A stretch of 61,143 nt of DNA, counting the filler, from Hausera hauseri (taxonomy: Eukaryota): assembly GCA_046269625.1 (NCBI GenBank). It is 12 parts of 12 records of this genome, joined end to end, with 100 filler letters (N's around TTAATTAATTAA, not from the genome) between each part and the next. Parts side by side here need not be neighbours in the genome. Positions count along the whole stretch, not along the records: positions 18,639 to 25,234 come from JBJURY010082769.1; 11 more parts are not named here. One strand, 5' to 3'. The translations under genes and the position numbers were made by a program. Shown piece by piece: positions 4,488-57,996 of the stretch. Positions within the stretch are counted from its first letter, which is position 1; every line of letters begins with the position of its first letter. The notes beneath the pieces were generated by a model. That model saw nothing but the letters and a program-made list of their open reading frames with translations, had not been told where the DNA came from and ran no database searches.

Positions 4488-7400
4488 AGGCCACACCATG
4501 GAAGTCCACACCATGAAAGACCACATCATGGAAGTCCCCACCATGAAAGACCATAGTATGGAAGACCACACCATGAAAAACCACATCATGGAAGTACCCA
4601 CCCTGAAAGATCACTTCATGCATGTCCCCACCATGAAAGACCATAGTATGGAAGTCCACTCCATGAAAGGCCACACAAAAGAAATCCACATCATTAAAGA
4701 CCACATCATTGATGATTCGCCATGAAAGACCCTAGTATGGAAGTCCACACCATGAAAGACCAATCTATGGATGTCAATACCATGAAAGACCATATCATGG
4801 AAGACCACGCCATAAAAGACCGCATCATGGAAGTCCCCACCATGAAAGAACATAGTATGGAAGTCCACACAATGAAAGGCCACACCATGGAAAACCACAC
4901 CATGAAAAACTATATCAGGGAAGACCACGCCATGAAAGAGCACATCATGGAAGTCCCCACCATGAAAGAACATAGTATGGAAGTCCACACAATGAAAAAC
5001 CACACCATGGAAAACCACACCATGAAAAACTATATCAGGGAAGACCACGCCATAAAAGACCGCATCATGGAAGTACCCACCATGAAAGACCACTTCATGC
5101 ATGTCCCCACCATGAAAGACCATAGTATGGAAGACCACACCATGAAAAACCACATCATGGAAGTACCCACCATGAAAGACCACTTCATGCATGTCCCCAT
5201 CATGAAAGACCATAGTATGAAAGTCCACACCATGAAAGGCCACACAAAGGAAATCCCCACCATGAAACACCACAGTATAAAAGTCCACACCATGAAAGGC
5301 CACACCATGGAAGTCCGCACCATAAAATACCACTTCATGAATGTCCACACGGTGAAAGACCACATCATGGTTGTCATCACCATGTAAGAACATAGTACCG
5401 AAGTCCAAACAATGAAACGCGACACCATGGAAATCCACACCATGAAAGACCATGTCATGGAATTCCCCAATAAGAAAGACAATATCATGGAAGCCCACAC
5501 CATGAAAGGCCACATCATAAAAGTCCCCACCATGAAAGACCATATCATGAAAATCCCCACCAAAAATACCACACCTGAAAGTCCCCACCATGAAAGACCA
5601 TAATGTGGAAGTCCACACCATGAAGGACCACATCTGGAAGTCCACACATTCAAAGGCCACATCATGGAAGGCCCCACCATGAAAGACCATAGTATGGAAG
5701 TCCACACCATGAAAAACCACATCATGGAAGTCTCCAACCTGAAAGACCACTTCATTGATGTCCCCACCATAAAAGACCATAGTATGAAAGTCCACACCAT
5801 GAAAGGCCACACCAAGGAAGTCCACACCATGAAAGACGACATCAATGATGACCAACCATGAAAGACCATGATATGGAACTCCACACCATGAAAGACCACA
5901 CTATGGTAGTCAACACCATGAAAGACCATATCATGGAAGTCCCCACCCTAAAAGACCATTTCATGGATGTCCCAACCATGAAAGACCATAGTATGGAAGT
6001 ACACACCATGAAAGACCACACCACGGAATTCCACATTATGAAAGTCCACATCATTAATGACCCACCATGAAAGACCATAGTATGGAAGTCCACACCATGA
6101 AAGACCACACTATGGAAGTCAACTCCATGAAAGACCATATCATGAAAGACCACGCCATAAAAGACCACGTCATAAAAGACCACATCATGGAAGTCCCCAC
6201 CATGAAAGACCATAGCATAAAAGTCTACACCATGTAAGGCCACAGTATAGACGTCCACACCATTAAAAGCCACACCATGGAAGTCCACACCATGAAAGGC
6301 CACACCATGGAAGTTCCCACCATGAAAGACGAGTGTATAGAAGTTTACACCATGAAAGACAACACCATGGAAGTCAACACCATGAAAGACAATATCATGG
6401 AAGACCACGCCATGAAAGACCACATCATGGAAGGTTCCACCATAAAAGACCATAGTATGGAAGTCCACACCATGAAAGGCCACATCATTGATGTAAACAC
6501 AAAGAAACACCATATTATGGAAGTCCACACCATGAAAGATCACTCTATAGAAGTCAACACCATGAAAGACCATATCATCGAAGAGGACACCATGAAAGAC
6601 GACATCATGGAAGTCCCCACCATGAAAGACCATTGAATGGAAGTCCACACCATGAAAGACCACATCAAGAAAGTCCCCACCCTAAAAGACAAATTCATGG
6701 ATGTCCCCAGCATGAAGGACCATAGAATGGAAGTCCACACCATGGTAGACCACACTATAAAATTCAACACCACAAAAGACCACATCATGGAATTCTCCAC
6801 CATGAAAGACAATATAATGGAAGACAACAACATGAGAGACCACATAATGGAAGTCCCCACCATGAAAGACCACAGTATAAAATTCCACACCATGAAAGGC
6901 CACACCATGAAAGTCCACACCATGAAAGACCACATCATAAAAGTCTCCACCGTGGAAGACCACATCATGGAAATCCCCACCATGAAAGACCACTTCATTG
7001 ATGTCCCCAGCATGAAAGAGCATAGTATGGAAGTCCACACCATGAAATACCACATCATGGAAGTCCCCACCATAAAACACCACAGTATAAAAGTCCACAC
7101 TATGAAAGGCCACACCATGGAAGTCCACACCATGAAATACCACATCATAAATGTCCACACGGTAAAAGACCACATCATGGTTGTCATCACCATGTAAGAA
7201 CATAGTACCGAAATCCACACAATGAAACGCGACACCATGGAAATCCACACCATGAAAGACCATGTCATGGAATTCCCCACCAAGAAAGACAATATCATGG
7301 AAGTCCACACCATGAAAGGCCACATCATGGAAGTCCCCACCATGAAAGACCATATCATAAAAATCCCCACCTTGAAATACCACATCTGAAAGTCCCCACC

Positions 7401-9553
7401 ATGAAAAACCATAATATGGAAGTCCACACCATGAAGGACCACATCTGGAAGTCCACACATTCAAAGGCCACATCATGGAAGGCCCCACCATGAAAGACCA
7501 TAGTATGGAAGTCCACACCATGAAAAACCACATCATGGAAGTCTCCAACCTGAAAGACCACTTCATTGATGTCCCCACCATAAAAGACCATAGTATGAAA
7601 GTCCACACCATGAAAGGCCACACCAAGGAAGTCCACACCATGAAAGACGACATCAATGATGACCAACCATGAAAGACCATGATATGGAACTCCACACCAT
7701 GAAAGACCACACTATGGTAGTCAACACCATGAAAGACCATATCATGGAAGTCCCCACCCTAAAAGACCATTTCATGGATGTCCCAACCATGAAAGACCAT
7801 AGTATGGAAATACACACCATGAAAGACCACACCACGGAATTCCACATTATGAAAGTCCACATCATTGATGACCCATCATGAAAGACCATAGTATGTAAGT
7901 CCACATCATGAAAGGGAACACCATGGAATTCTACGCCATGAAAGACCATATCATGGAAATCCCCACCTTGAAATACCACATCTGGAAGTCCCCACCATGA
8001 AAGCCCATAATATGGAAGTCCACACCATGAAAGATCACATCATGGAAGACCCGACCCATAAAGACCATTTTAAGGGTGTCCACACCATGAAAGGCCACAC
8101 AATGGAAGTTAACACGATGAAAGACCACATTATGGAAGACCACGCCATGAAAGACCACATCATGGAAATCCCCACCATGAAAGACCACAGTATAGAAGTC
8201 CCCACCGTGAAAGACCACACCATTGATGTCCATACCATGATAGACCACATCATGGAAAGCCCCACCTAGAAATACCACATAAGGAAGTCCCCACTATGAA
8301 AGAACATACTGTGGAAGTCCACACCTTGAAAGGCCACACCATGGAAGTCCACACCATGAAAGACCACACCATAGATGTCCACACCAAGAAAGATCATAGT
8401 ATGGAAGTCCACACCATGAAAGACCACACTATGGAAGTCAACACCATAAAAGACCATATCAAGGAAGACCACGTTATGAAAGACAACATCATGGACGTCC
8501 CGACCATGAAAGAACATAGTATGGAAGACCACACAATGAAAGTCCACACCATGGAAGTTTACACCAAAAAAGATCATAGTATGGAATCCAAACCATGAAA
8601 GGCCACATTATGGCAGTCCACATTATGAAAGACCATATCAATGATGACCCACTATGAAAGACCACATCATAGAAGTCCCCACCATGAAAGACCATAGTAT
8701 GGAATTCCACACCATGAAAGGCCACAATGTAGAAGTTCACACCATGAAACGCCACACCATGAATGTCCACACCATGTAAGACCACAGTATAGAAGTCCAC
8801 ACAATGAAAGGCCACACCATGGAAGTTCCCACCATAAAAGTCCACTGTATAGAAGTCCACACCATGAAGGGCCACACCATGGAAGTCCACACCATGAATG
8901 ATTACATTAATGAAGTCCACACCATGAAAGGCCACACCATGGAAGTCCACACCATGAAAGACCACATGATGGAAGACCACGCCATGAAAGACCACATCAT
9001 GGAAGTCCACACCATGACAGGCCACACCATGGATATCCACACCATGAAATACGACATCTTGGAATGCCCCACCTAGAAATACCACATTTGGAAGTCCCCA
9101 CCATGAAAAACCACATCATGGAAGTCCATACCATGAAAGGCCATAGTATGGAAGACCAAACCATGAAAGACTACATCATCGAAGTACGCACCCTGAAAGA
9201 CCACTTCATGCATGTGCCCACCATGAATTACCATAGAATAAAAGTCCACTCCATGAAAGGCCACACCATGGAAGTCCACACCATAAAAGACCACATCATT
9301 GATGACCCACGATGAAAACCATAGTATGGAAGTCCACACCATGAAAGACCACATTATGGAAGTCAACACCATGAAAGACCATATCATGGAAGATTACGCC
9401 ATGAAAGGCCACATCATAAAAGTGGCCACCATGAAAGACCATAGTATGGAAGTCCACACCATAAAAGGCCACAGTGTAGAAGTCCACACCATGAAAGGCC
9501 ACACCATGGAAGTCCACACCATGAAAGACCACATCATTGATGACCCACCATGA
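4488..9553. repeat. Degenerate 15-bp/30-bp tandem minisatellite (GAAGTCCACACCATG AAAGACCACATCATG)n with ~1.8-kb higher-order duplication
   Basis: The whole contig is built of 15-mer variants. The ORF at 5664-5861 recurs identically at 7475-7672 (offset 1811). Translates as (MEVHT/MKDHI)n on + and (HGVDF/HDVVF)n on -. Confidence 0.95.
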
Positions 9554-15496: not shown

Positions 15497-18239
15497 CTAA
15501 AGGTTGAGATTGGGATGTAGTAAATGATGAATTTTTCGGAACGTTTGTAGGTTCTCGATCGGTCGGTATCGGCGGTTATTCTGATGATTGGTGACTGGTG
15601 AAACATGTCGGTCCAGTCGTTGTTGCTGAGGAAGATGCGGATAACGCTGCTGGTATCGTGGCGAATTGGTCGGGATTCGGAGTGAATTTGTCTCCAGAGC
15701 TTTTGACGCTACGAGAAGCGTCTTCTGATGAATTGGTTCGGATTTGTTTAACACTGGACTTAAATGATTCGTAACCGGCATCCGATCGGTTTCCTTTGTG
15801 TCTCTGTTTACGCGAAAATTTGTGATAATCCTTGTCGTCGGGTAATCTACAAATTAGAAATCAGAAAACAACAAACTCCATTGACAATGCAACATACTTT
15901 ATCAACTGTACTTGTTTCGGATTAACTTTGCGTAACCAATAACAACACAAAGCCTGTTCCGTTGAGCATCGACGATTTGGATCTAGTTGTAACATCCAAT
16001 CCAACATATCCAGGGCATCGATAGACAATCTGAAACAAACGTCAGAGAAACAGACAGGCGAATAATTGACGTACTTTCAATAATAGTCTTTCAGACGACG
16101 CTTGTAATTGGTTTTCGGTTTATATGATTGATACAGTGGTAATTTAATGATATCAGGCCAACTACCAGTATTTGGTGTACCGCATATTCGAGATATCTCA
16201 ACCAATTGATCGAATTCCGCATTGGCGACAAACATAGTCCGACGGGAAATAATTTCCCCCATCACACACCCGATAGACCAAATGTCTATTGGCGGCCCGT
16301 AGCACTATTCACCGAGCAACAATTCCGGTGCACAATACCACAGCGTAATAACTCGATTCGTATACGGTCGCTTTTTATTCTCCGCATCGTATCGCCTGGC
16401 GAGACCAAAATCGGCCAATTTCACTTTGCCTCTAAAAATATCGATGACATAAACCAATGAGCTTGTGCAGCGTTGTTCCTGAACGAATAACCAAGCGAAG
16501 CACAAAAAACGAACGTGAAAAATAATTAAGAGATATATACACCAATGTCTTACCGTTGTGTCAAATGGAACGAACTTCCTGTGAAGTTTTATCAAATACT
16601 AACACAAAACTTATCACAACTGTTTTAATAAAACAACGAAATGGTTTCAGGTTTTCTAGTCCAGTCAATACGGTAAACAGTTAAAGAAATAAATTTAACT
16701 ATCATGCTGATATCAAATTGTTTTGTTTTAAATCTCGAATAAAACCAAAACAATGGTTTATATCTGAAAATTAATTTAAAAAGCAATAAAGAACATAAAT
16801 TTGTACCTAAGTTGAAAAAGTAAAATCAATACAAGACTCAAGAGCAGCCAATCCATGAACCAAGCTACCAATGATGACACATTCACAAAGCAGCGAAAAC
16901 AGTCAGACAACTAATCGATACAAGACTAAATTCTTGGGAACCATAACGATTAGTCAATAAAAAATGGACTGGTCGATTTATGTAAAATGATCAAATTGGT
17001 TGTCAAATGAGATAACGTAACATAATGACAGTACACCACATTAATTACGGAATTATGTTGATTAGCAAATAAATAATAAATACCTTTTGTTTAGAATATT
17101 CGAGCATTTGATATCCCGATGGAGAAACTGTTTTTTGTGACAATAATTGACACCTTCGACTATCTGTTTTACAATAGACGCAATCTGTATCTCGCTCATT
17201 ACAACTCCGGAATCGATTATTCCGAATAGATCATGATCCATGTACTCGAACACGAGATAGAATCCGCTGTTCTCAATGTCATTTTTCGATTCGTCATCCG
17301 TTACGACTTCCATTAGTCGTACGATATTGCTATGGTGCAATCTCTGTAGAATTTTCACTTCTCGCACGGTAGTTATCGAGAACCTTTCTCGTTCATTTTG
17401 TACTAGAATTTTCTTTAATGCTCTCATGGCATTAGCTTTTTTTGTGAAGTGCCTTAAACACCTGACCATATGTACCTTCACCGATCTCGCTGATAATCGT
17501 AAAACTGTCGACGGATCGATGAATCCAGTCAAATGCTGAAATCGCCTTTTGCGATACTGGTACATCCTAACATTCCGGTATCATTTGACATGATTACGCA
17601 ATTCGCCTTACTTTGGTAACTTTAATATCCTTTCTTGTTCTATAACCTTTCTCTGACTGTTCGAATTTGCCATGCTTTTTGACGGTTTGCCAGAAGATTG
17701 CCTTCAAACACAATTTTTATAGAACAATCGTCTGAATTACTCGTCAACAGTATCGATCTTACGGCGCTTCTCGTAGAGTTTATAGTTTTCCGTATGTCAT
17801 CTTTTCGATTTCTTGGACTTGTCATCGGGTAATGGAACTTGGGTCAAGTCAAATTTAAAGTCCGAAGCCGACGGTTTCGTTTCAGCAGTATCATTTGATT
17901 TTAACGTACGATCAGTTCGAAATTCACTTTTGGTGGTTAAAAATGTGGTTGTGAATTAGCTGGATATGATTTTATAATGTTCATCAAAGAACTATTTTCA
18001 TTTGCGCCGGTAAAATTCGACGCCGGGTCACCAATTACAGACACATTGGAGAGCGAAGCATTCATTTGCGAATTATTCTCGCAGACTTTTGCTGTATTCG
18101 TTTTCAGTGGACCGGAATAATTATTCATGCTGCCTAAGTAACTTCAAACACGTAATAATAAACCAAATCGATTCGATCAAACGTCTTACTTAATTTTTGT
18201 CGGACCGTATCCGATCATGGGATTTGTCTGTTTAGGCAT
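15497..18239 (-). pseudogene. CDK12: Intron-containing CDK12/CDK13-like kinase gene with inactivating lesions
   Basis: EIGEGTYGQVFKA, ITTVREVKIL, FYLVFEYMDHDL, HRDIKCSNIL, GT-AG intron 16432-17083, [37 protein letters not shown]. Frameshift in an A-run (~17440) and in-frame stops at 16305 and 16077. Paralogue assignment 12 vs 13 is uncertain. Confidence 0.8.
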
Positions 18240-19462
18240 CTAAACACAACCAAATTGAAACTTGATTGAAATATGATTGGTTTACGCTATATTTATTTTT
18301 AAAATCTTTAATAAAATATTAATTAAAAAATATTTACATGATTGTTTTAAAAATAAAACCAATAAATTACACTTACAATTTTAAATTGTAAAAATTCGCC
18401 ATTATTTAAACAAAATCTTACGGTCATTTTTCAATTGAATTGTGCGCGAAAAGCAATAATTATGACACAGTATCATTGTTCTTTGATGGTGATATTTTTA
18501 GTCGAATGTCAATTACGAATTGTTATTTTTAAAACAAANNNNNNNNNNNNNNNNNNNNNNNNNNNNNNNNNNNNNNNNNNNNTTAATTAATTAANNNNNN
18601 NNNNNNNNNNNNNNNNNNNNNNNNNNNNNNNNNNNNNNATAATAGATGAATGGCTATTTTTGGGTGTAACTGGGACCTTGTGTACACAGTTTCGTTCCAC
18701 CTCATGTACCACGTGTGATGCGAATGGCAATAAAGATTCTTGAACTTGATACAGTAAGCTTTTGATACTGATTTGAGCTCTACTAACCAATACTGAGATG
18801 GATGACTTTACGTGCATCTCTTATTATTTGTTCCGAGGAACAGACATTTCACTTGGCCATATTTCTTCTGTGGACCAAGCGTCCTTTGTCTGAATTAATA
18901 TCTTTTACCTCATACTAATAGCGTCACCACTGGGAAAATGTCCTTCTCTAACAGCTGAGTTTCTACCCTGAAACAATCAGCGTTTCAACCAGGTGAACCA
19001 ATACCTTTAACTCTGAGTGGTGTTAATGTATCGAGTTGCTCCAACTTTACCAATACCAGAGTTGCTCCAGCTGCATGAGCTGTTTCTATCTGATTGAGTG
19101 AGAGTGCCATTGACCTTCAGCCATTTTACTGGGACTGTATTAAAAAGGCCCAGCCAGAGCCCTGATTTTATAGCTGAGCCTTTCCAAGGTCCCACTGACC
19201 TGATGGATATTACGAGGATAAATCAAACGTCCATGCCAGCACTCTCATTCAGAGCAGGGGTTGGAGCATGACTGTTTGCTGAAGAATGGCATGACTTCCA
19301 GCTCAGTGTGTCTAAGTGCGACATTTCACAGTTTGTTGGATAAAAGTGTAATATTCTTCTATCAAACAGTTACATAGATTTTAATTGACACGGAAACGAA
19401 TTTTACTGTAAATCTGGTTATTTTATAACAAATAATCAGAAACGTGCACAATATAATGTTTA

Positions 19463-20074
19463 CTACTGTGGACAAAAAGCAATGAGACTGATTAAATAGA
19501 ACACAAGAAAATACTCCATTCAACCAAATTTATTGTGTTTCCTTCAAAGTAATCCCTTACAACTTGAATACACTTATTTCAACATTTTTCCAGTCCATGA
19601 AACAGTTATTATACGCAGCTTCCGGTATAGCCTGCAAAGCGGCCAGAGAATTCTCTTGGATGGCTTCTGTTGATTCCAATCGATGTCCACGAAGTGGTAA
19701 TTTGAATCGAGGAAAAATGAAAAATCAGACGGAGCCATATTTGGCGATTACCGTGCTTGTGTTACGACATTTACTTGATTTTTGATGAAATACTGACAAA
19801 TAATTAAGGCTGTAAATAAAAGGCATAAATAATATTCTTTGGTGACTGTTTGGCTAGTTGGAAGGAACCTTTTGTGGACAACGCTACAGTGATTGAAGAA
19901 AACAGTCAACATGACCTTGATTTTTGACTTGCTTCGATGTGGTTTTTTCAGTTTTGGTTCACCTGCAGAACGATATTTATTGGATTGTTGAGCTGTTTCC
20001 AAGTCATGAGCATAGATCCATGTCTCATCGCCAGTAATTATGCATTTCATATCATCATCAGTCATAGAAAGCAT
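19463..20074 (-). mobile_element. Mariner transposon 3' part, truncated by an LTR insertion
   Basis: IITGDETWIYAHDLETAQQS, KSKIKVMLTVFF and a C-terminal DYFEG-like end. TIR-like TACTGTGGACAAAAAGCAATGAGACT at ~19464. Confidence 0.8.
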
Positions 20075-20883
20075 TGAGAAGACGCACGAGAGAATCCCAA
20101 ATAGTCCTTTAAAATTGTGATAAGTTTAAAGGTGTAGAATTTATTTGGTCCAACGACCTTAAACTTATGCTATCAATACTCAACTTGGACCCTCTCCTTG
20201 TCCCAAGTTGGATTTATTTAGTTACAGTATTCGGCAGCCTGTGGGTCTGCCGAAAGTTAGGAATGTTATTTATTTACTTTCTCTTAATGTGTGAGTTCGG
20301 TCGGGAGGTACACCGACGTTGCTCTCCCTTATTTAATGTAAATTAGACAACCGACCTGTATTAAAGGAAGGTATACCAAAAGAGGGATGCCCAAAATTTA
20401 CGTTATTTACGTCTATTGCAATACTATACCTTTTAATTATTTTATACTAAATCAATAAATCAAAACAAATGAAACTACCGGAATATTTAATAAAGTATTA
20501 AATCAAATAATCAATCAAAATATGATAAGAAAATATGAACAAAAGAAATAACAAAACATGACTTACAATTATCATATGTGAGATTCATGATGTATCAGAG
20601 ATCAGTCAAAAGGAAATTGTGTGAGTTGTACAAATAACGCCAGTATTTATAATAAAATTTTGTGTCACCATATGGAAGAAAAATTACAAAAAAATTTAAA
20701 ATGATTAAGGAATAAATCAAAAATAAATTTTTAAACATATGTCAATTATTGGAGAATCAAACATTTCATTTTCTCCACGCAATAAAATAAGCTTTTAAGC
20801 GTATGTCGATTATTGGAGAGTCGCTTTTAAGCACATGTCAATTATTGGATTTCATTTTCGAAATATGTCATTTATTCTGAACA
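20075..20883 (-). repeat. 3' LTR (~809 bp) of the integrase-FN3-exonuclease Gypsy element
   Basis: On the - strand the PPT AAGGAGGGAGAAGA is followed by TGTT at 20883. The LTR ends ...TCTCA at 20075, exactly where the mariner sequence resumes. TATA-like and AATAAA signals lie inside. Confidence 0.7.
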
Positions 20884-23800
20884 TCTTCTCCCTCCTTGGA
20901 TGATGCTGTCCGCAGCATCAAGGGGTAGGCTTCGATAATTCCATTTGAATCTTGATAATCGACGGATTTGATATGGAGTAGTCTTCCTTTCTTCTTAATT
21001 TGTCTCTTTAGGGTAACTGTTTCTGTTTTTGGGATTTTCTTTTTCTTTTTCGGAACTCTGGTTAGGTCAACGACGATTGATTCTGTGGAACTAGCTGCCG
21101 TTATTGGGTTTAGATTAATATAACAGTCTTTTATAGAAGTCAATGCTTGATCACCGGAAGATTGGGTGGATGTCGAGTGGGTGGCAATTGATCGGGTATC
21201 TGGAGATTCTTGTATTTCCATCGGAACTGGGAATTGTTCATTTTTGTATTCCGGAATAAAATTGTAAATTTTTAATATTGTTACTGCTTTCTCTTTTGTT
21301 CTTTGAGGATATATGTTACCATTGTACTGGGTAAAAATCTGTTTGGCCGTGTATGTTCCTTGAGGATTAATACTGTCATGGTATAACAATTCTCTAATTC
21401 CCAATAGATTGTTGTAATCATACCTGAAGGTAGTTGCAAGGGTGTGATAAACATCAATGCCTATGATTACTTTTCCAACGATCATTTTCCTTATGAAGGG
21501 TTCCTCGTGATACGAGTCCTTTTTCCCAATAATATGATCTTCTTTCAGTCCAGTTACGTGGCTGTTATAATTATCAATCTTTTCTCTAGGGCATAAAATT
21601 TCGTCCAAAACAATTCCGCCATCTAGATTCATCAAGGTTACTTCTACCGAAGTCATTTCAGTATTTCTGATAGGGGTGAATAGGTATATAGGATTTACGG
21701 CCATGATTAGCATCTCTTCTTTTAATATTATTGGTTTTCTTGTGAAAGATAGGCCTTGTTTTACGTCGATTTCTTTTGGTTTGGGAGTAGTGTATTTGGG
21801 AATTTCGTAATCCAAATGTGGTATTAGGTCTTTTTTTATAACTTCAAGGTAGATTATTGGGAACACTTCTTGACACGTTCGTATGGTAATTGTAGAATTG
21901 GCGTACAATCTAGGATCCAAACGAATTGTTACACGGGTTAAGACTTCCATCACGTCTGTAATTCCATTGGAGTGTGATTTGCTTTTTAATTGAATAGTCC
22001 CTTTTGCCACGGAGATATATATGGCATAAGTGCGTCCGGAAGTATCAATTAAATCGGAGAGGTTAATTGAACTCTGTCGTACTTTAATTATAAGGCTGCT
22101 CCTTTGCTGGACTGAATAACCTTTGAGATTGTTAGGGATAAAAACGGCTCTTCCATAGTAACAGTAGTCTTTGTTAGAGGTGGCCCATAAATTAGATAGG
22201 ATATGATTGTAAAATGAGTTGGGTCTTTCGGTCCTCTCTGCACCTTCTTGGACTAAAAATAAAAACATTAATGTTAGCCAAGCGGTTTTAGAAGAAGGAA
22301 TATTATCACGTTTTGATTGTTTGTTTTTTATATAGGTCGCTAGGAATTTTGCGGCCTGATTCTGGATTTTTATACAGAGACATACGGTTATGTCTTTTAA
22401 CGGTCGGGTCTGCCGCTCTTGATCGGTAAGTTTTTCAACTTGCCGTTGATTTTCTAAGAAGGGCGCGCTTATGTCTCGTAACGATACCTGGGAATCTTCC
22501 CTTAAAATTTTTAATTGCTCTAATATTTCCCTTGTTCTACTTTGTCGTCGCTTTATTTTAGAAAAGTAAATTACTAAAGGTAAAAGTATAGCTAGTAATA
22601 TTAAAAGGACACATAGTAAACTGATTATCCAAAGATGTTTATTCGAGGTTTGTTCTGGTTTCTGTGTAGTTGTCCTTGGTATAATCCTAGGAGTAGTTAT
22701 TGTCTGTTTTAAAGTCTTCTCTGTACGAAAAACTGTTCGTAACTTTTCTCCTTCGTCATCTAATTCTGTTATGACGACTTTATAATTTGTGTCAGTTTTT
22801 AGGAACATACACGCAGATGTCGGTTCTTCAGGAGTTAGAACTCCTTCACTAATCACTTTATGGTTAAGATGACATTCGAATTTTATGTTTGTATTCTTTA
22901 GGTCAGGCACTGTAATAACTAATGAATGACTTGTTGGTTGGATAATTATATCCAGTTCTTTAATATCCTTCTGGGATTCCATCATTGGAGTAGTTACTAC
23001 TGTTTGTAATGTGGTTGATGTACTTGGTTTTGTTACTGAGGCAGTTGTTTTTCTTGTTGAAGTAGGGGTTACCTTTATCGGAGATCTGACTATTATCTCT
23101 GGACCGTCTGCTGTTTTTGACCATGTATAGCCGTTATACGTGGTCCAGTAATATATCATATACTGTTTATCAAAAGCGATAGGACAACACATATATGGAT
23201 TTCGGTAATTCGGTTTACAATATGTGGTATTAGTGCCATCGGATATTTCATATTGGAATGTTACATACCTCGTGATTTGTACTTCTGGCTCTGCTGTTAT
23301 ACAAGGTCCATTTTTCATAATTTTCGAATAAAATGAGATAAGGAAGTATGGTCGATGGAAATAATGTGTAGTACCAGGGTATGAGAAATATGTTCTATAA
23401 CTCTGGTCGCTTTTTCCTGTTGCGTATTGAATCCTGTACGTTTCTCCGAATGAAAGTCCACAGCAATTATGTATCGAGTGATTATAATATAGATCACAAT
23501 TTTCCGGTGTCGCTTTTTCCACTATAGGTAATTTCGATATGAATATGTGTATATACTCGTCTATTGTTAAGTTCCGATTAGCCGTAATCTTTATACAAGG
23601 GTATTTTCCAACTTGTACGGCCTTGTAATTTACATCTAAGGACTGAGCTGACACGTTAGTCACTAAAATTAGCATCATAAGTGTTATCATTAGCGATGGA
23701 CTAAAGTTTTCATTTCTTATTTTTAACTCTATTGGTGCAGGCTTGCATCTATTCACATGAACTTTTATTGGGTTCATCTTACCTCTTTTATTTTTGTTTA

Positions 23801-25234
23801 AGTAGACGTTGGTTTCGTCTACTTTCTGAATCATGTATGGACCTTTATATGGTCTATCTAGTTTTGGTGTCTTTCCTTTCTTACTTAAGGGTGTGTGCAG
23901 CATGACTTTATCTCCAGGTTTGAAGTCATGTGGCTTAGCCTTTTCGTCGTAACGACTTTTATATTCTTTCTGACATATTTTTGTGTGTCGTGAGGCCAAA
24001 CTCCATACGTATCCTAATTTTTCCTCTAGTAATTCTTTATATTCCAAGTCTTTTAAATGAGATACAGGCGTTTTGAAGTCCAAATCGATCGGCATATGAG
24101 TATCTCTAAGATACATCAGATAGAAGGGAGTTTCTTTTGTTGCCGGGTGGATTGTGTTTCTAATAGCGAATAAGCATGGTTTGATATACTCATCCCAATC
24201 ATCCTGTCTTTCATTTACCATAGTGGCCAACATGTTGGTTAAGATTCCGTTAAATCTTTCCACTGTTCCATTCGTTTGAGGATGATACGGGGTAGTTTTT
24301 AGTTGTAGTATGTGGAATATTTTCGATATTTCTGCCATAACTTCTCCTGTGAAGTTTGGTGCTTGATCCGTCAATAGTTTGGTTGGTGCACCATAATTAA
24401 AAACGATTTCTTCGACGAAAGCTTGAGCGATGGTTTGGGCCTTTTGATCAGGTATTGGTATTACAACTGGCCATCTAGAAAATAGATCGACAAACACTAA
24501 CATGTATTTATTTCCATTAATCGTTAGAGGCAGTGGTCCCAAGATATCCATTGCTGAAAATTCCATAGGGGCTGGTGGACATTCTATTGGTTTGAGAGGG
24601 ACTCTGATTTTTGAACCGGTGTTCTTTCTAGTGGCACAGACTGGACAACTCTTACACCAGTCTTGAACATCTTTAGTCATAGTATACCAGTAGTATTTTC
24701 TTTTCAGTCTTCCTAATGTCCTCTTTACTGATTGATGTCCTCCCATCATACCATCGTGGTATTGCGTCAACAACAATTTAATATCTTCTTGAGGAACGAC
24801 AACAACTAATTTTCCTTTATAATTGTAGTGCAATATGTCATTTTTTGTCTCATAATTTTCAGCAAACTGTTTCAGGTGAGTGTAAAGATTGATATCACTC
24901 GGTACCGTTTTCCTTTTTAAATACTCCTTGATTTCTTTGATTTGTTCGTCATTTTGTTGTTTTCGTAGTAACGACTCTTCTTGTTCTGTGATACTCCATA
25001 TAGCTGCTATGACACCAGGTTTATCTGTAGATTCTTCTTCTGATTGACCTGTATCTTCTGGTATTCGTGACATGTAATCGGCGTTCGCATTTGCTTTCCC
25101 CATTTTATATTCAAATTTAAGATCATACGGTTGGAGTAACATAGCCCATTTCATTAATCGACTATTCGGGTTTTTGTGATTTTTCAGCCACTGTAATGGT
25201 TTGTGATCCGTATAAACAACGATGGGTTTGGTTT
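20868..25234 (-). CDS. Gypsy Pol C-terminus (RNase H end, integrase) fused in frame to a signal peptide, FN3-like repeats, Thr-rich stalk, TM helix and DEDDh-exonuclease-like domain
   Basis: The frame is open to the contig edge (YTDHKPL). Motifs in order: ANANADYMSR; HHCC (YHDGMMGGH...CKSC); DILGP, TDQAPNF, VERFN; GPY; SLMITLMMLILVTNVSA; CGLSFGETYRI/CPIAFDKQYMI/FLKTDTNYKV; LWIISLLCVLLILLAILLPLVIYF; VEVTLMNLDGGIVLDEILCPREKIDNYNSHVTGLKEDHI. Confidence 0.9.
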
Positions 25235-27449
25235 NNNNNNNNNNNNNNNNNNNNNNNNNNNNNNNNNNNNNNNNNNNNTTAATTAATTAANNNNNNNNNN
25301 NNNNNNNNNNNNNNNNNNNNNNNNNNNNNNNNNNCCGTCAAAAGAAAAATATCAATCGAATACCGAGTTGTACGAACGGATTTTTGAACCTTTCGACAGT
25401 TAATTTTACGACGAACTTTCGTGAACAAAGATTATTTTAGAAAGGCCTTGTGTTCATTCATTCTCAAGAAATAAAAAATATGAAGAAAATGTCAAAAACC
25501 CTGAAATTTTAGTTAGAAGCCACCCAGATAATGCAATTGGAGAATTTAAATTTGACAGTTTTTCTCGATTCTCTGGTCTTTTGATACATTTCATTTGTCT
25601 CAATATATATTATCTGTTATATGTATTACTGCGTTGTATCTGGTTAAGTTGTTATTAATTTATTATAGATTATTGGAAAAAAATTTTAAAACAATAAACA
25701 AGTATTCAGCGTATTCAGTTGTTATTTTCTTTTGACACACTATTTATTCTCTATCGGAATTATTCATTGTCTATGGATATTTATCCCATTGTAACTATTG
25801 GAATTTCTGCAAATTTAACACGGTGCCGTCTGTTATACTACAATATGAATAAAGTTGTTATACATGATATCTATCGAACTGTCAAAAACAAAACCTAAAG
25901 ATTCGTTGATTTACCAAAAATCCATGTAGTTCGTGTCGTTGTTGAACCACAAAATATGCCGACGGTTTAAAAAGATTTGCCAAATCATATTCGTCGGTCC
26001 AAACCGACTGGGAAGAGTCAAAAAATAACGGTATAGCTGACGTTGGTGAATCCCAATTAGAAATCTGTTTGAAGGAGAGAGAAGAAGATTGGATGGAGAG
26101 ATGCGACCCACACAGATACTCAGAGTGTCGATGTCGAGTAATCATAATTGATTGATTAAAGGTCGATATCTAATTGAAATGTATAACAGCGAAGTGACTG
26201 TATCGAAGGGATGATGAGTCGTTATTGCTGATATGATAAAAATGTACACTACTCGAAGGAAATTCCAGATAGAATCGTTGTGATCTTTAACAGGGAGACG
26301 GAGACGGTGGACGAGGGGTTTACCAATCATCAGTATTGTAAAGCTACGCTTGAACGAACAGATATATCGATGTAACATTCAGGACCCAGAAATCGTACTT
26401 TGTGGAACTTGCCGTGTATTTGAAAGAACGTAGTTTTACGAATGAACTAGTTAGAATATTCGATGGATGAAAATAAAATTACAGACTTGAAAAATTCTGA
26501 AGGTGAAAATTTAAGCCAGGCACAAAAATTAAAAATGGCAAAATATTCGTAACATTATTCGGACGTTTGATTCTATTGACATAAGGCCAAAACACCACTA
26601 ACACAAATGACAACTTACCACACAGTTTTAAAATGGCCGCCAACACTTCATTGGATACATTTCCTTGAAATTTCACAGCACTTTCTGGATGGGAATATTC
26701 CAGTCCACGGGATCGCATTCGGTTCAGTCTTTGGAACATGACTTTTAGCTGAAATAGTGATAAGTTGTTATGTACATAGAGGATTCATATGACGATCGTG
26801 TACCCAATGAGTAATTATGTTTTAATTTAATTATTAATTTCAATATTAATTATTAGTAGGTAGAAGTGTCCTCTCCTGACCACTACCCAAAATGTGCTCA
26901 GATCAAGCTGGAAATCAGTTTTCCCCACCTATCTGGAAATTCTGAACATTTGATGTCTGATGGTCGGAGACCCCTCCGAGGGAAAGAAGAAGGTCGAGCA
27001 AAGGACTTTGAACCGAGACCAATCGGTCAAGCCGGACAAGGCGAAGAAAAGTTAACAGCGTCACGAAGCCGAAAAGTGCAACCCCGCGGCACAGGAGGCG
27101 GACGAAGAAAAACGGGCAATGTGCAACTGGCAACGCATCACATGTTGCTGGTATACCGAAATTTTGTACAGAGGTAAAATTGATGTTGGCAAGTCGAATG
27201 GACACGGTTTCATCGTCGTGCGACCAAGAAAACATAGGGAAAACCGGTTAGGAAAATTTCCGTCGGGTAAAATTTCCCCATGTTCAAGTCTGTCGGTCTC
27301 ATACATTGCCCATAAGTTGGAGAAAATTTCATATTATAACCGCCTCACGATCAGACCAACGGATCCGGGTGAAAAATGTAATTGAAAAACGCATTGCTAA
27401 AATGTCATCATTTTAAATGCGTTCGTTGTTTGTAGAAAAATTGTGAATT

Positions 27450-35593: not shown

Positions 35594-36160
35594 CTATTTG
35601 GACTTCTGGGTTCCATTTAAACATCGGTTTCGACATTTGGCCAAAAGCTCCCGTACTCCCTGGATTTTTTGTGTATGGTGGGTATAATTGTCCCTTAACG
35701 ATTGAGGTATTGAATTGTTTTTAATGTAAGACATTTCAGACCCTGTATCGATTAAGGCATAAACTTCCCAATCTTCGATAATAATTTTGGCGAAGGGCCT
35801 TTCTTCTATCACCGTTCCGAAGCAGTTTGATGCATCCATTGAGCGTTTTGCCGCCGATATCTTATGTCCGTTGATTCGGATTTCTGGGGAGGATACTATA
35901 TTCTCTGCCAGTTGCCTTAACTCTCCGTTTGGGTATAATTCATTGTTTTCGATGTTTAAGTTTTCTGCTTCGTGAGTACTGATTAATGATTTTCGATTGT
36001 TAGTATGTATTTCGGTAGTCTGGAAGGTTTTTAATCTTGGATTGTCCCAAACTGGTGATCTAGTTTCTATATTTCGAGGTTTTCTCGGGGAATACAACAT
36101 CCGGGGATTATCTACGGGCCGTTGGTAACACATTTTCCGTAGGATCCTGTAGCGTTTCAT
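35594..36160 (-). CDS. Retroviral-type aspartic protease region of a retroelement polyprotein
   Basis: RPFAKIIIEDWEVYALIDTGSEMSYI. Confidence 0.75.
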   Translation of the reverse strand: MKRYRILRKMCYQRPVDNPRMLYSPRKPRNIETRSPVWDNPRLKTFQTTEIHTNNRKSLISTHEAENLNIENNELYPNGELRQLAENIVSSPEIRINGHKISAAKRSMDASNCFGTVIEERPFAKIIIEDWEVYALIDTGSEMSYIKNNSIPQSLRDNYTHHTQKIQGVRELLAKCRNRCLNGTQKSK

Positions 36161-36177
36161 GCATTCATACGAGTCTT

Positions 36178-38320
36178 CTACATTAATTGTCCTTTTATAT
36201 ATTTCCGTCTGGATGAACTCATGGATCGTTTGTCACAGTCTTCGTAGACTGTAGCAGTCGGAGGTGACATAGTCAATGGTGCTTTAATGACAGAGTACAT
36301 CTTATGTTTGTTTATTCCTGAAAGTACTTCTCCTCCATTAGGCTCGTCATCACCTGAATTATTTCCTCGTATATTAGGTTTTGTAAGTTTCTGCTTTCGC
36401 AAGGATATAGGCCTTCCTTTACGTTTACGATTATAGTAACCGACATGGCGTTCTACGTCCGATTTCCATCTATTTTCTTCGTATGCCTTTAAGAATTTTC
36501 CAAAGGGCGTTCTGATTGCAGTCAGTATCTTACATGAAAATCCAGTCAATGTAAATATTTCATACCCATTTATTACTGCTAGGATGACTGCTTTAATCAT
36601 TTGTATCAGAAAATATATCGCTAAGAAACCGGATGCGGCTTGGCCAAAAATCAAAAATCTTCTCCAAATTTTGTAGAGTATTTCTGTTGTTACTCGCTGA
36701 TAATGGTTTACACCGAGTAACGATTCCCATTTGGCCTGATGTCGTGTATCGTCTACTACGGAAGCCATGGCTCGGTTTAATTCATGTGTTCTTTGTCGCG
36801 GAAAAGCAAGGAATTGTCTAAAGGCTTCGATTTCCTTAGGCCTGTATATGCCTTTTGACGAGGTGTCTTGAAATTCATAGTCCATAATTCCTTTCGCAAG
36901 GTTTATGCCTGTTAATTTATTTGGGGAGGCAGTAATGCCTCCATTTGGCAAACTAACCCCGTCTGTTTTACTACGTCTAAACATGGGCTCTCCTAAGCTT
37001 GCCTCACAATCCTTAAGGATAGTTGGTTGGGTTGCATTATCCAGTAACACTCTCGTCAATGGTGTAGCCAATCTGGGAATATTCTGATAGATGACAGGTA
37101 GTTCCTGAATGCAACGTTTTTCGTCCACGTTAATGGATACATCTCTCTTTTCGCATTTATAGGTCAGCAGTACCTCGCCCGTAACCCGACCGAAAATTCC
37201 CTCTGTTATAGGAATTATTGGAGAAGCCAATTCTGGGTTGGCGTATATAACGGACAGTTTCGTCCTCATGATTTCGGTATCTAATTTTCAGTCGTTAGTT
37301 ATCATTTTGTGATATAATTCAGCTATTCCGACTAGCCTCTTGTAGTAGAAGTAATCGTCTCTGTTTTTCAGATAATCCTCAATTCGGACATCCTGCGTCT
37401 CTAGTTTGTAAGTCTTTGCATTTATTTTCGTTTCTGCGACGAAAAATGCCTCATAGTTAGTAGCGAACATCACTACGTCACAACGAGAGACAATCTCTTT
37501 TTTGATAAATCTTAGTCCATGTTGATCCGAGATCAATATAGTGGATGTAGGATGTTTTGATACGTTCTTGCGTATCCTTGAATTGGTATCCGATTTATTT
37601 ATATAACGTTTTCCGGTAGTTTCATTAAACTTCAGTTCCTTAATTTTAATAAAATTACGGCTTCTTCCAGAAGGTGGTTCCCATATTATAACGGAATTTC
37701 TAAAAGCACAGGTTCCATCTTGTAAGTGGCACTTACAAGATTTTCAGTGTATAACTTAGTGACACTATGAAACATTACTTTCTGTGAATGCATCTCCGAT
37801 TCGTAGAAATCCACTACTACCACATTTGCTTCCAATCCTTTTCCAGTATCGTATTACGCTCCGTAACAATGTCCGTTATGCATGTCTAACCTTCCCGCCA
37901 CTATTTTGTATGCCCTAATTAAATGTCCTTGTTGAATTTCCAATTGCATATTGCCCAGTTGTACTCTTCCAGTTTCCTTAGCCTGTTTGCAGTGCTGGCG
38001 TTCTAGGTTTATTGGAATAAGAAGAGTGGTTGGTTTGATTATTGAGGAATGTCCGTATACTAAACCACAGTGAAAAATTCTACGAGATCGTCTCAGCATA
38101 CATTCCATCTCATCTAGCGATATCAGGTCTTGATGTTGATACAAGAAGTAATTTTTCTCTCTTGTTTCCAACTTGTGCGGTCTGGAATCCTCGCACACTT
38201 CCAGATCCATTAGGGAATGTCTTTGTCCTAGTTTAAACTTATCGCAGTGGTAGACGGTTACAGTGCCTATGTGCTTTATTAGCATCATTAAGGTGAGTAA
38301 GCTAATTAGCCAATTTGATT
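36178..38320 (-). pseudogene. Chuvirus-like (class III-type) envelope glycoprotein, frameshifted
   Basis: Signal WLISLLTLMMLIKHIG; VYHCD...SLMDLEVC; CMLRRSRRIFHCG; CKQAKETG; VAGRLDMHNGHCYG; GEVLLTYKC; CIQELPVIYQN...TPLTRVL; GIYRPKEIEAFRQFLAFP; TM FGQAASGFLAIYFLI...INGY. Confidence 0.8.
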
Positions 38321-39990
38321 TATTTTTCCGGCATCCAACATCCGCCGTTGTCAAATTACGTAACATTTTGTCGAATTTATTACCGGTCCGTCTGTCTTCT
38401 TCCTTGACAAACAGTCTTAACCAATTTACTTCACACGGCAGTCTTCTTGCCACTTTCCGTGCTAGGCTTATAGCCTTATTGATTTTATTCTCTCGATTGG
38501 GGTTTATTTTAATATCTAAGTTTAGTAATACTTTTCTCAATTCCTCATTGATGTTTTCTACCATAATCTTTTCGATTACCGATTCATCGGTTAAGTTACT
38601 TTTCGACAGCTTAAAACGTGAACTTCTCATCATTTTAGCTCCTTCGAAAATTATCTTTTCTTTGTCATCTAATACGTCACCTCGAAGGCTCGAATAATTT
38701 ACGATTCGTATTAAATTCTTCATTAGCTCGCTTAATTCCTCATTGTTTGTACTGTTAGTCGGAATCGATATCTGCCTCAGTTCTCTAATCATTTCCCCAT
38801 TATAGTCAACTTCTTCTCTCGTTTTCTTAGGCCTACCAACTGGGCGTTTCGGCCTTTGGCATTTAGTGGTTAGTTCACTGAATGGTACAAAATTTATATC
38901 GTATTGTTCCTTATCTTTATCTGTTTGTAAATACTCGAAATACATTGCAGCGTCTCGGAATCCCATGATTTGTCCTACGCATTGTCCCGTCTTGGCTTTA
39001 CGTCTGGCCTCTTCTTTTGTCTGTTTGTTAGCTATTATAACTACTATCCGATTTGTTTCGTCGGGGATAATCACGACATCTATTAATTGTTCTAGGTCGT
39101 CAAGTATTCTACCTCTAAAGTAAAACCTAGAATTTAACTCGCCTGTTCCTCCATTATTTAATAACCATTCTCTTACGTCTCTCACATAGAAATAAGTAGT
39201 TAATTTCCATTCTTTTTCAGCCATCCACTGGTATGATATTATTACTTTCATCGCTACCTCAGGTTTAGCCCTCAAGATTTTAGCGTATTTCTTTATCAAA
39301 AGCTTCGGCACCGTGCTATAAATCGTATTCTTACTAGATAAATTAGTTAATATCGGAATAAGTTGTCTTAACTTACTTTAAGTAATGTTTACATTAATTA
39401 GCTCGATTAAATCCGTTTCAATTTGCGCTGAATCCAGTATCATTCCACATTGAATCTCCTGTTCTGCGTGCATGTTTCTGTCTCATTTAGTTGTACTGGA
39501 GTCACGGGGTTTTCGGCAAGCATTGCGTCGAAGTATGCATCCCATACGGGTTCGTTTCCAGCATCTGGAAATCCATATTCTACTGTATTCGTTTTTTCAC
39601 GTTTTCCCTAATTTCTTTTAATCTTCGTTGTATTTCTTTCATCTGCGTGGTTTGGAAGCCTATTCCATTTCTACAGGCATACTGAATAATTATCAGTAAT
39701 TCGCCTAATTCATTAGAATTGATGAATCCCTTTTGGTGATAATCAGTTATTTCGATAATTTTATCTCTTTGCCATCTTTGTACGAATTCTTGCTTGTTTT
39801 TAATTTCTGATTTGGTAAAAGCATATTTGTTTCGGTAGCTTTCGAACTCTTTTGCTAGATCATCTAGTCTCGTTGCTCTTTGTTTTGTTCTGATGCACGT
39901 TTCTTCTACTTGCTGTAATTTGGGAATCAATTGCCTCATCTTTTTGTCATTAATTTCCACCATTTCTACCAATAAGTAGGCGGGATCCAT
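38321..39990 (-). CDS. N-terminal polyprotein region with ubiquitin-like segment and AT-hook
   Basis: VRDVREWL...SRFYFRGRILDDLEQLIDV resembles the Ubl motif RLIFxGKxLxD; RPVGRPKK is an AT-hook. Same ORF (37854-39311) as the start of the glycoprotein. A helical ORF lies upstream at 39580-39990. Confidence 0.5.
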
Positions 39991-53937: not shown

Positions 53938-56900
53938 AGAAAAGAAAGGCACGTCTCTTAAGCTTACCAGGACAGGGAGAGGACCTTATGAAGTTACCAA
54001 TATTACGCCGGCCACAGTCTATATAAATAAAAACGGCAAGGAAGAGGTTATATCGATTCAAAGAGTAGTTAAAATGGAGATAAAACCCGCCAAACGTTAC
54101 AATTTGCGCTCGAGCAAAGCGGGTAAAGAAAAGAAAACGTCGACGATAGTGACCAGACCAGTATCATACGTGCGGATAATCCTTGCCTTATCGTTAATCG
54201 CTTCATATGTGCCGAAGGCAAAATCGATGACCGAGACTGAAAAATTACAATATGCAGCAAGACGGAAGGATATCCAAAACTTACAATCACTTTGAGTACA
54301 CGATATGGATTGGAGAAAACCATGTGCATGGCTCGAAACAAGCGAACCTATTCAGAGCCACGTAAAATTTCAAATAATATTTATAACCGGGAACACGATG
54401 AGAACGTGCGATTTTCCGTACGGAGTTCATAGGAGATGTTGTAATTTGGATTTTGGACAAGCCCACGGATACAGTTTTTAGAGGTTTTATTCCTATCAAT
54501 TTGGAGCTCAAGCCTACATAACTACGGAACTCTCAGTAAGAATGCCCCAACGAAAGGACGCAAATCAGGCTAAGACAGACAAAACAATTCTAAGCACGGA
54601 TCCATTTAAGAGGCTTTTAGATTACAACATTGTTGGGATTCACAAGGACTTGAAGAACCAGTGTATTTGAATTGATACCAAAATCCAACTGCCAGGAGAC
54701 AGAGAGATTTCTGTCCAATTTATACCCCTGAACACTTCGATTCCTAAACCAGAGTATTGTTATTTGGCCAGACGACGATCTACTGTGTGCTGTGTACTGC
54801 AACTAGGACAGGAATATCAGTTGCAACTAGACTTGTATAATACGTACCCCGGAGAGCAAAGTATCTATTTACGGGTATATCGCCCAAAAACGGAATATGA
54901 AAGCTTCCGTTTCCAACCACTACGGGAAGACCGTCTACTGCTCCGAGTACAACTTTCACTACTACGATCGTCACTTCGGACGAAATGCCAGTAAGCATAC
55001 CGGTTAAAATTTTGGCAAAAAGCGATAGAATTCTATTTTACGCTGAAGAGACGTTAAATCGAGACGTCAAAATTGAATGTCGCACCCTGCACACCAACCA
55101 AGTTGTGATCCTGAAAAAGAATAGTCAAGAAGCTAAATGTAAGTCCTTACGGCCACAACATGTCTATATAATCCAAATTACTGCGAGGGGTAAGAACCCT
55201 AAAACTTTTACAGTACGAACTCTTGGCAATAAAGTTGAAGTAATGCCATATAAAGTGTCAGTACTCAAAATGTGTTCACCACGGAAAGTTCTATTGAGCC
55301 GAGTAATTTACCGATAATAACTATGTTCAGTTTGTCAATTTTCGTTCTTGTCATAATAGCAGCAATGATTTTTCTAGTTCCCAAAAATTGTAATAAACGC
55401 TGTAAAAATCAAAATGGAGATAAATGGGTAAACGGGCACCGAGACGGACCTTATGATAGCATAACCTGATAACTACAGATCGGGTTAACCTATCATCAGA
55501 CATAAAAAATGTTTTGTTTCAAAACGATGATCTGTCTTAGGATTACTCTTTATTTTTATTTCAGCAGAGTAAGTATGACCGAGAAGGCAAAGAATTCATC
55601 AGTCAGTCCCAATTTCGATATCGATAATTTCTTGCAGAAGCACGTCGCTGTCCTTAAACCATTATCCAAAAATCTATACCGACAAATTGGAGAAAATCTG
55701 AAAACCCAGGCTATATAGAGTTCAACCAAGAGAGTAAAATGCCAAATGGGCTAAAATTGGGTTTAGAAGAGAATCGACTGGTCTGATTATATGCTATGAG
55801 AAATCCCAAGGATGCACGGGCATATATTTTAAGAGACCTGATTCCATATGAGCCGACACATAAGCAATTGTACATACATGTCGCTGATGGAGAAATTCAA
55901 CACAGGATCGTAGGACATTCCTGGAGTACTCAGAAGGGACAGCAATGTAAGTTTAGCACTTACGAGCTATGTTGTTATAGCCTCATGAATTATGCTCTGG
56001 AATTCAGGATCGCGGACCTTCCGACCAAAATCATGATCGAAATGACGTGGCGAACAGAAGTAATGAAGCCGCCACCACCGTTACTATATGTACAGAAGCC
56101 ATCGGAGGATGAGATAGAGCAAAATGGAGAATCTTACAGATTAGTTCCAGATGGCCGAAATACTCGGATATTGGCCGTAAACTATTGAGAAAAAAATGAT
56201 AAATGGTACTTTCCGATTGAGGTTTCCATCAGAAATGCTAATCGAGAGGAAATCATAAACAAAATAATAGCACCGCGGGCCAGAATAAAAGATACTTTTC
56301 CCGACGTTACTGGAATCACGAGGTCACAGCTCAAAAAGGGAAAAGTTTTTTGGAAATCCAAGAAGATATAAGCCATTGCTTATATGGATACGTGGTTACC
56401 GGATTTCGAGTGCACAAAGCACTGGAACGACTAGGAATTAGGCACGAATACATAGCCGGAATTCGAGAATTGAGCCGGAACCCAGCAATAGTGAGCCAAG
56501 TGGAAAATACATTGATGCGGAAAAGAGGTTGTCTGCTTCCGTCATCATCCCGCGAATCGCAATTTAAGATGATGCTAGAAGCCATGAGTGGCGATCGATT
56601 CAAATTTCCTAAGCTAATGACAGCAAGTCAAAGGACCACATTTATAAAAGATATCTATAACTCGTTACGATGGATTCACGAATGGAAACCCAAAAGTCCC
56701 ATACAGAATGCGATATCTGACAACAACCCCAAGGCACTAATACAGAAATTCCAAAAAGGGTTTAGTAAATACCCTAGTTATCGACAGATCGAAACCCGTG
56801 AACATAACCGATTCCGAATAACAGTCTATAATAACCAAACGGAAGTTCCAAGCAATCAACAGAAACCATCAACCAGTAAAGCCCAAGCAGAAGTGACAAT

Positions 56901-57996
56901 AAGAGCTGATAATTTAGAGAAACCGAAGAGTCAAAAGACAAAGACCTCTTTTCTGGACTACATTAACAAAAAAGAAGCAAGACCAGCAAAGGCCCTGCGA
57001 CAGATAACCTAATCCCGGAGAAACCCATAAATGATTAGAAATGAGTATGGAATGGAAAAACTGGAAAGAAGATAGAGAAAACTAACTAGAAATTATTAAG
57101 CCTAAAACCCTTAAAACGGAAGTTAACGTTCTTCAAAAGAACTGGGAAGAAGATACCCCAATTATCGTCACATAATTTGGCCAAGTAAAAAAATATAAAC
57201 GAATCCTCTTTATGGCCGAATACTACAGCAAAAGAAAAATCAAAGTGGCTATATTTTACGTATTTATTGCTCCAAGACGAATAGTGAGTGGAAACGGATA
57301 TGCCAGAGAAGATTACACTATCGGCATATACCTAGCTCCAATATTTCAATCAAAAAGTGAAACTAGCAGATTAACAATTCCCGTGGATACCCAAGTGAGG
57401 ATTCAACTAAAAAGACAGTACAAGAAGACTGGAGTACCAGATTTGGACAAATAAGAAATAGTCGAATGGACCTTAGTCGCAGTATCCGACGACCCAAAAA
57501 AAAGCTTAATAGACCCAAATCAAAAGAGGTTGTACGGATACTTATATCAAGATAAGAAAGGACTGGTATTTGAGAGAATAGAAGTTGACGAAGACCTTGT
57601 GGACATTGATGCGGCCGAAAAAGAAGAATGTCCCGTTTGTGACGCGGATCTTTATCAAGGCTTCGTAGCAATAGATAACAAGGATTGCAGTCATAAATAC
57701 TGCCGATATTGCTTGGAAACGTGGACCCTGAAAATGGGAAAACAACCTGCCCAGTATGCCGAGCCGAAGCTACAAGGCTAAGGTACTACTCGAATGGAGA
57801 GAACAAGAAAATAGTAGAGATATTTCCCGAACAAACCACTACATCCTATCACATTAATCAACAATCACCATCAAACAAAACAGATTCGGAAGCGGACTTA
57901 CGCGAACGAATGGACCAATTACACCGATTTCCCGGCACCTCTACTGACGCAATGGGCACATCCGAGAGTGCCGTTCAGGGAGGAGAAATGTTGTAG
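53938..57996 (+). pseudogene. Second, diverged and frameshifted integrase-FN3-TM-exonuclease-RING polyprotein
   Basis: GPYEV integrase tail; signal VRIILALSLIASYV; CCVLQLGQEYQL and CKSLRPQHVYII; TM ITMFSLSIFVLVIIAAMIFLV; IEVSIRNANREEIINKIIAPRARIKDTFPDVTGIT...GIREL; RING CPVC...CSHKYCRYC...CPVC. Confidence 0.75.

Follow-up and report, generated by a model that had tools for sequence, protein, structure and literature searches.

Reading frame and backbone of the element

The window, the whole 61,143-nt stretch of Hausera hauseri DNA that was analysed, consists of contigs joined by N44-TTAATTAATTAA-N44 spacers. The element lies at 18639-25234 (JBJURY010082769.1), where a minus-strand ORF runs uninterrupted from the contig edge to a stop at 20868, an intact frame of 1450 codons whose amino-acid numbering is counted from 25286. 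The features of this element, and of a decayed relative (element 2), are as follows.

25119..25232, minus: C-terminal end of a Gypsy RNase H (PF17917, E 1.8e-7); the ORF is cut by the contig edge (spacer 25235-25334)
23739..24797, minus: Gypsy integrase, aa 164-516 (PF17921, E 2.6e-20; PF00665, E 7.7e-13)
23646..23702, minus: predicted internal signal peptide, aa 529-547, cleaved between VSA and QS (hydropathy; a signal-like segment likewise begins the ectodomain behind the integrase in the 10 closest long relatives)
23382..23630, minus: Cys4 beta repeat 1, probable FN3 (homology with repeat 2 and with the repeats of element 2; low pLDDT)
23076..23339, minus: Cys4 beta repeat 2, probable FN3 (all-beta model, pLDDT about 40-60)
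22971..23075, minus: Thr/Ser-rich spacer (49% S/T)
22698..22970, minus: FN3 domain, repeat 3, Cys2, the clade-wide repeat type (predicted fold)
22563..22697, minus: membrane-proximal stalk and predicted TM helix (aa 886-908) with a basic stop-transfer (hydropathy 3.29)
22254..22562, minus: 103-codon stop-free linker, from the cytoplasmic tail into an acceptor-like site
22253..22277, minus: predicted 3' splice acceptor, made up of a CTAAC branch point, a T tract and TAG
21834..22241, minus: AlkB-like double-stranded beta-helix domain lacking the HxD/E..H metal triad (Foldseek; column conservation)
21246..21719, minus: ISG20/REXO4-like DEDDh fold (RNase H-like DEDD fold, ISG20-type sequence)
20868..21245, minus: low-complexity tail with Lys/Arg clusters, a possible nuclear signal, and the stop codon
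20720..20854, no strand assigned: 3' untranslated region with an imperfect 39-nt repeat in three copies
20133..20330, minus: probable polypurine tract (20322-20330) and 3' LTR ending TACA (purine runs, AATAAA; boundaries uncertain)
53939..57800, plus: element 2, carried by a different contig (end of an integrase, signal, 2+1 repeats, TM, tandem stops after the tail, acceptor-like site at 55564, AlkB-like and AVN pseudo-DEDD regions as in the window element, RING-like Cys pattern)

The backbone has the Ty3/Gypsy order, an RNase H followed by an integrase with an HHCC zinc finger, a DDE triad (D247-D307-E343) and a GPY/F motif (here GPY). The ORF begins inside the RNase H, so gag, any env, the protease and the reverse transcriptase (RT) lie outside the contig. 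A second LTR was looked for on the contig and none was found; only the probable 3' LTR was seen, and contig depth is raised at 20180-20399. Contigs of runs X1, which may be the source sample, and X2 (10551 and 6962 records, mostly 90-95% alike) cover 30 of 30 bins of the contig, and the element family is therefore multi-copy. What the contig holds is the 3' portion of a Gypsy retroelement present in many copies, likely a flatworm errantivirus of the GAG-ENV-POL type, whose own env is not on the contig; its nearest described relatives are flatworm elements. Its probable 3' end is adjoined by a mariner-like transposase fragment at 19500-20125.

The predicted surface protein behind the integrase

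The segment that follows the integrase is predicted, from hydropathy and the FN3 fold, to be a type I membrane glycoprotein, in line with the FN3 membrane protein originally proposed. Three FN3-like repeats had been proposed. Repeat 3 is modelled as a seven-strand beta-sandwich with the Leu/Tyr motif of FN3 domains, whereas repeats 1 and 2 give low-pLDDT models with an hhalign score not above that of shuffles. BLASTP found no match between repeats 1 and 2, and repeat 1 had none to the FN3-type family profile; the local alignment of the two repeats was better than 999 of 1000 shuffles, and the score of repeat 2 against each element-2 repeat was reached by none of 1000. Atlas features placed repeats 1 and 2 at 0.85 to fn3, which is a lead only. 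With a profile of 11 relatives' FN3-type repeats, from which the window was excluded, the window ectodomain scored 26.6 bits, against at most 10.8 in 500 shuffles. A Pfam scan of the ectodomain gave no domain, and a weak Fn3_Dep-1 match located in the AlkB-like region was treated as chance.

Integrase neighbours were sought with the RNase H-integrase region among proteins of 2546-5000 aa (E <1e-60), which gave 16 matches and, with locus L002 added, 17. The 10 best share 49-58% integrase identity with the window, and the neighbours are 2700-4100 aa long. All 10 contain a Monjiviricetes/gB-type fusion glycoprotein (PF24664), upstream of the RT where positions were read, and all 10 end in a signal peptide, an ectodomain, a TM helix, a tail of 18-116 aa and a stop; the 11th neighbour (40% identity) has neither the fusion glycoprotein nor the surface-protein ending. 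Cys-bearing FN3-type repeats occur in six of the ten (P0043-P0046, P0049 and L002), while the ectodomains of P0050 and P0052 are Cys-free. The number of repeats varies, and unrelated domains have been swapped in at P0047, P0048, L012/L013 and L015, as is expected of a host-facing module. The integrase tree does not resolve the placement of the window copy among these relatives, and clade membership therefore rests on identity and shared cassettes.

The virus-like accessory cassette proposed for the window copy is real and common to the clade, not peculiar to one copy. The FN3 protein is no substitute env: the clade has a gB-type env upstream of pol, which makes it a second surface protein. It is likely to act in attachment, as a second envelope protein; the adhesin or decoy role and the anti-silencing role first put forward are candidates. 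Relatives were also sought among viral contigs, where none was found, and by an Atlas search with the N-domain, which gave no usable match.

Several further features were seen in these relatives. A YxLR motif (often YNLRPR-like), reminiscent of the chromatin-binding motif of foamy virus Gag, follows GPY/F in 10 of 10 relatives and is not in the window copy. The membrane cassettes are flanked by further aspartic-protease domains: L002 has three, and P0043, P0044, P0046, P0047 and P0050 each have one directly after the integrase. L002 (1-9624) has a second FN3-TM cassette ahead of protease/pol. Elsewhere in the window, at 35594-39377 (minus), is a broken gB-type env (PF24664) with a signal-like segment ahead of it and an aspartic protease behind it; it is about 30% identical to the relatives' env and might represent the 5' portion of a clade member.

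Errantiviruses of the GAG-ENV-POL, gB-type class have been described in flatworms, nematodes and bryozoans (Chary and Hayashi, PMC13524379); the nine flatworm rows listed there span 12-18 kb. Like the nearest relatives here, these elements have a Gypsy pol and a gB-type (HSV/gB) env between gag and pol, and the L002 env shares with the Schmidtea rows, by eye, YQESD, VREC, PENC, AFQT, ELRE and G(I/V)YVS. They differ in that the main text describes neither a glycoprotein behind the integrase nor an AlkB-DEDDh ORF, and fibronectin, exonuclease, AlkB, accessory and splic- have 0 occurrences in it. The planarian giants Burro/GYPSM1 (PMC6431247) likewise encode a single giant polyprotein with env between gag and pol, and ankyrin repeats in P0045, one relative here, are a further likeness. 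As described there, they exceed 30 kb, with about 5000 aa and BIR, BCL2 and MATH domains, compared with 2700-4100 aa here; BIR and BCL2 families are absent from the relatives' precomputed Pfam accessions. That review contains no fibronectin and mentions DEDD for Terminons only. Elements of the gB-type GAG-ENV-POL class were already known in flatworms, and the FN3 plus AlkB-ISG20 cassette was not found described in literature searches; Repbase, Dfam, figures, subscription papers and the original Burro report may annotate the architecture.

The AlkB-like and ISG20-like domains

The C-terminal part, taken originally for a single ISG20-like domain, comprises two domains. The upstream one is modelled with the double-stranded beta-helix and N-terminal helix of the AlkB fold. 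Its assignment is based on Foldseek alone, with matches to ABH8, Ofd2 (rmsd 4.7), PHD2, ALKBH7 (4.8) and viral AlkB domains (4.3); cupins are also among the matches, so the AlkB-like subfamily is not fixed. The iron triad and terminal Arg are lacking: with strands mapped from the DSSP line, there is a single conserved His column (18 of 21; Ser in the window), one Glu and no HxD/E. At E 0.1, Pfam 2OG-oxygenase families matched 0 of 21 proteins.

The second domain has an RNase H-like DEDD fold by Foldseek, with profile matches to ISG20L2, ISG20 and SDN1. Intact relatives keep a His in motif III and so are not of the DEDDy (RNase D) type. In the window all five catalytic positions (D, E, D, H, D) are replaced, by A1196, N1198, T1282, Q1328 and K1333, and the ISG20/REXO4-like domain is a pseudo-nuclease, as had been suggested. 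Structure prediction with Foldseek, the check set beforehand, found both the FN3 fold (repeat 3) and the DEDD fold. A Pfam scan of the window C-terminal part gave no credible domain, and the AlkB-like plus ISG20-like family matched no Pfam architecture beyond the exonuclease domain.

Among 1.84 billion representatives the AlkB-DEDD region had 33 matches, all of 660 aa or less, and the ectodomain drew none; part of the short ones are ordinary cellular exonucleases, and the AlkB-DEDD homologues are ORFs of 420-660 aa. The catalytic set is kept in 13 of 20 aligned homologues, with six degenerate and one truncated. A branch with 89% bootstrap support separates the six other dead members and the window copy from the rest, in a clade made of long branches. 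The accessory family has active and dead branches, and the window lineage is dead.

In the 15 loci examined, the AlkB-DEDDh gene is a separate ORF. Where there is upstream coding DNA (L002, L003, L012/L013, L015 and element 2), it comes after the TM-protein ORF and its stop. Short coiled-coil ORFs adjoin it at L002:11571-12005, L003:1773-3058 and L004:588-1166.

Copy differences were read as the best 40 of 184 at 22120-22720 and the best 40 of 1089 over the contig. In the AlkB and DEDD domains, 17 synonymous and 3 non-synonymous changes are found among the differences listed, against an expected (neutral) synonymous share of 34%, a bias with p 7e-7 when rows that are not independent events are counted. 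In the best 40 of 184, again not independent events, the domains flanking the linker have 19 synonymous to 3 non-synonymous changes (Fisher versus linker, p 2.7e-4), and the 18 differences listed for the linker are 5 synonymous, 13 non-synonymous and 0 stop (p 0.63 versus neutral). The arrangement is under selection, clade-wide. The intact frame had been read as a sign of recent activity or selection; the many copies and the synonymous bias in the domains agree with this, but the linker changes at the neutral rate.

Exonuclease-fold accessory proteins past pol have a precedent in the bdelloid LTR elements Juno and Vesta (Rodriguez et al., PMC5408684), whose ORF3s, according to that paper, are typically expressed from spliced messages. 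ORF3 there belongs to the DEDDy/RNase D type, keeps its catalytic sites and lacks a TM helix, whereas here a DEDDh ISG20-like domain with an AlkB-like barrel, both dead, stands behind an FN3 glycoprotein. Maelstrom and EXD1, discussed in the same source, are dead nucleases and offer a functional analogy.

Human ISG20 and ISG20L2 and the AlkB domains of plant viruses have the folds found here, with the difference that the catalytic residues are gone in the window. The exonuclease of arenavirus NP is another functional analogy. The dead AlkB-ISG20 protein would be an RNA-binding shield. The active and dead branches would form a natural pair for asking whether catalysis or decoy binding acts against host RNA trimming and modification.

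The linker, the predicted splice acceptor and the expression of the cassette

The 'second hydrophobic segment' of the original prediction (best 19-residue hydropathy 0.88; 11-residue, 2.46) is hydrophobic when translated, but it coincides with the predicted splice acceptor. By a crude score, a simple untrained T/C count, the acceptor at 22253 is the best of 164 YAG sites in the contig, and the one at the same place in element 2 is the best of 107. Among 13 relative loci, counted without the duplicates L013 and L015 and including several near-copies, a YAG lies 0-3 nt upstream of the ATG in 8. By score it is one of the three best of its locus in 8 and ranks below third in 5. The acceptor block (22237-22293) has 0 differences among the best 40 of 184. 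RNA folding gave z -2.4 for 22230-22360 and found no stable structure in the conserved linker block 22380-22480 (z -0.6). We infer that 22253 serves a subgenomic mRNA as its 3' splice site. Past the acceptor, the first Met in frame is M1113, which lies inside the barrel, and a spliced product would therefore need an upstream phase-1 exon; Drosophila gypsy env is a comparable spliced product with such an exon. The C-terminal part had been thought to be released by signal peptidase. Splicing is the more likely route, since the relatives with DNA context keep this part in an ORF of its own, preceded by a splice-acceptor-like site. What reads as a hydrophobic segment of a fused protein can be a predicted splice acceptor in translation. 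A 47-nt linker block (22425-22471) is matched alone by X1, X2, X4 and X5 run contigs that diverge on either side, and is a possible cis-element.

The explanation we favour, which could go either way, is that of a gB-type errantivirus with an FN3 attachment partner and a mostly spliced, dead AlkB-ISG20 RNA shield. The long ORF would be threaded into the ER, where signal peptidase would open the FN3 ectodomain, and the element's aspartic protease would free the integrase. The FN3 glycoprotein, made one-for-one with the gB-type fusogen and so able to enter the same membrane, would serve as its variable attachment partner. Splicing at the 22253 acceptor, with the start codon on an upstream exon, would give free AlkB-ISG20 protein; unspliced RNA has no stop and would also yield a membrane-tethered cytosolic form. 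The dead protein would bind and shield the element RNA, where intact relatives would trim RNA.

In the papers compared here, retrotransposon envelopes are treated as single fusogens. If the attachment role is true, a clade-wide second glycoprotein with a variable FN3 ectodomain would offer a testable handle on the choice of target cell, for example stem or germ cells. Herpesvirus gB needs separate receptor-binding proteins and is a functional analogy. A bolder version, which we hold only tentatively, gives flatworm gag-env-pol retroelements a two-part, herpesvirus-like entry (a gB-type fusogen with a swappable FN3 attachment glycoprotein cut from one polyprotein) and this lineage a dead RNA decoy, derived from an AlkB-ISG20 RNA-processing enzyme and expressed twice, spliced and tethered, that would protect the genome from host RNA surveillance.

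The fusion is real as sequence and may stem from a lost stop between two genes. It might instead be the working form, the AlkB-ISG20 part being made mainly by read-through, tethered at the inner face of the membrane, packaged and coating genomic RNA. The linker is stop-free in only 13 of 20,000 shuffles, with 14 and 6 stops in its other two frames; the listed linker differences contain no stop, two compensating +1/-1 indel pairs (one per run, in two runs) keep the frame, and there is no Met from the acceptor to aa 1113. We nevertheless think this rather unlikely. The relatives' tails of 18-116 aa mean that an open tail this long is expected anyway, and its frame would match by chance one time in three; linker residues change at the neutral rate while the acceptor block is conserved, and one X1 contig (84 of 1616 depth, 5%) carries a 1-nt deletion that frameshifts the linker. 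No fused relative was found by a profile search among 1156-3300-aa proteins, which is weak evidence, and a word-based search with aa 510-1454 gave nothing among 799-2545-aa proteins. A lumenal fate, with the second hydrophobic segment acting as a genuine internal signal peptide to direct the C-terminal domains into the ER, draws on its 11-residue hydropathy and on a similar stretch in the closest homologue, P0001. It is barely credible: the segment coincides with the best acceptor-like site, the P0001 stretch ends I-Q-M, which is the translated acceptor plus ATG in L006, L010, L011 and L014, and the C-terminal domains combine nucleic-acid folds with basic clusters and lack any conserved Cys.

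The FN3 protein could also be a host-modulating surface decoy, a receptor mimic or cell-adhesion modulator that is not involved in particle entry. Its Foldseek matches include FN3 domains of cytokine receptors and Ig-CAMs, rapid domain turnover fits host conflict, and L002 has its second copy ahead of the protease. This reading is doubtful, as the FN3 matches are generic (7-16% identity, no receptor family prominent) and the protein shares an ORF with env in relatives, which would favour co-assembly. That the modules are neutral passengers, host pieces captured by a decaying element, is improbable. Catalytic residues are lost in both enzyme folds and the window copy departs at several positions from nearly every other copy, but the arrangement persists between elements whose integrases share about 50% and whose accessory proteins share 17-25% identity, and the synonymous bias and the intact frame also stand against decay.

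Two observations concern other parts of the window. An intronless CDK12/13-like kinase fragment at 17062-17580 (minus) is possibly a retrocopy. A long 15/30-nt tandem array within 4400-9115 adjoins a pentapeptide-repeat ORF at 8489-9115.
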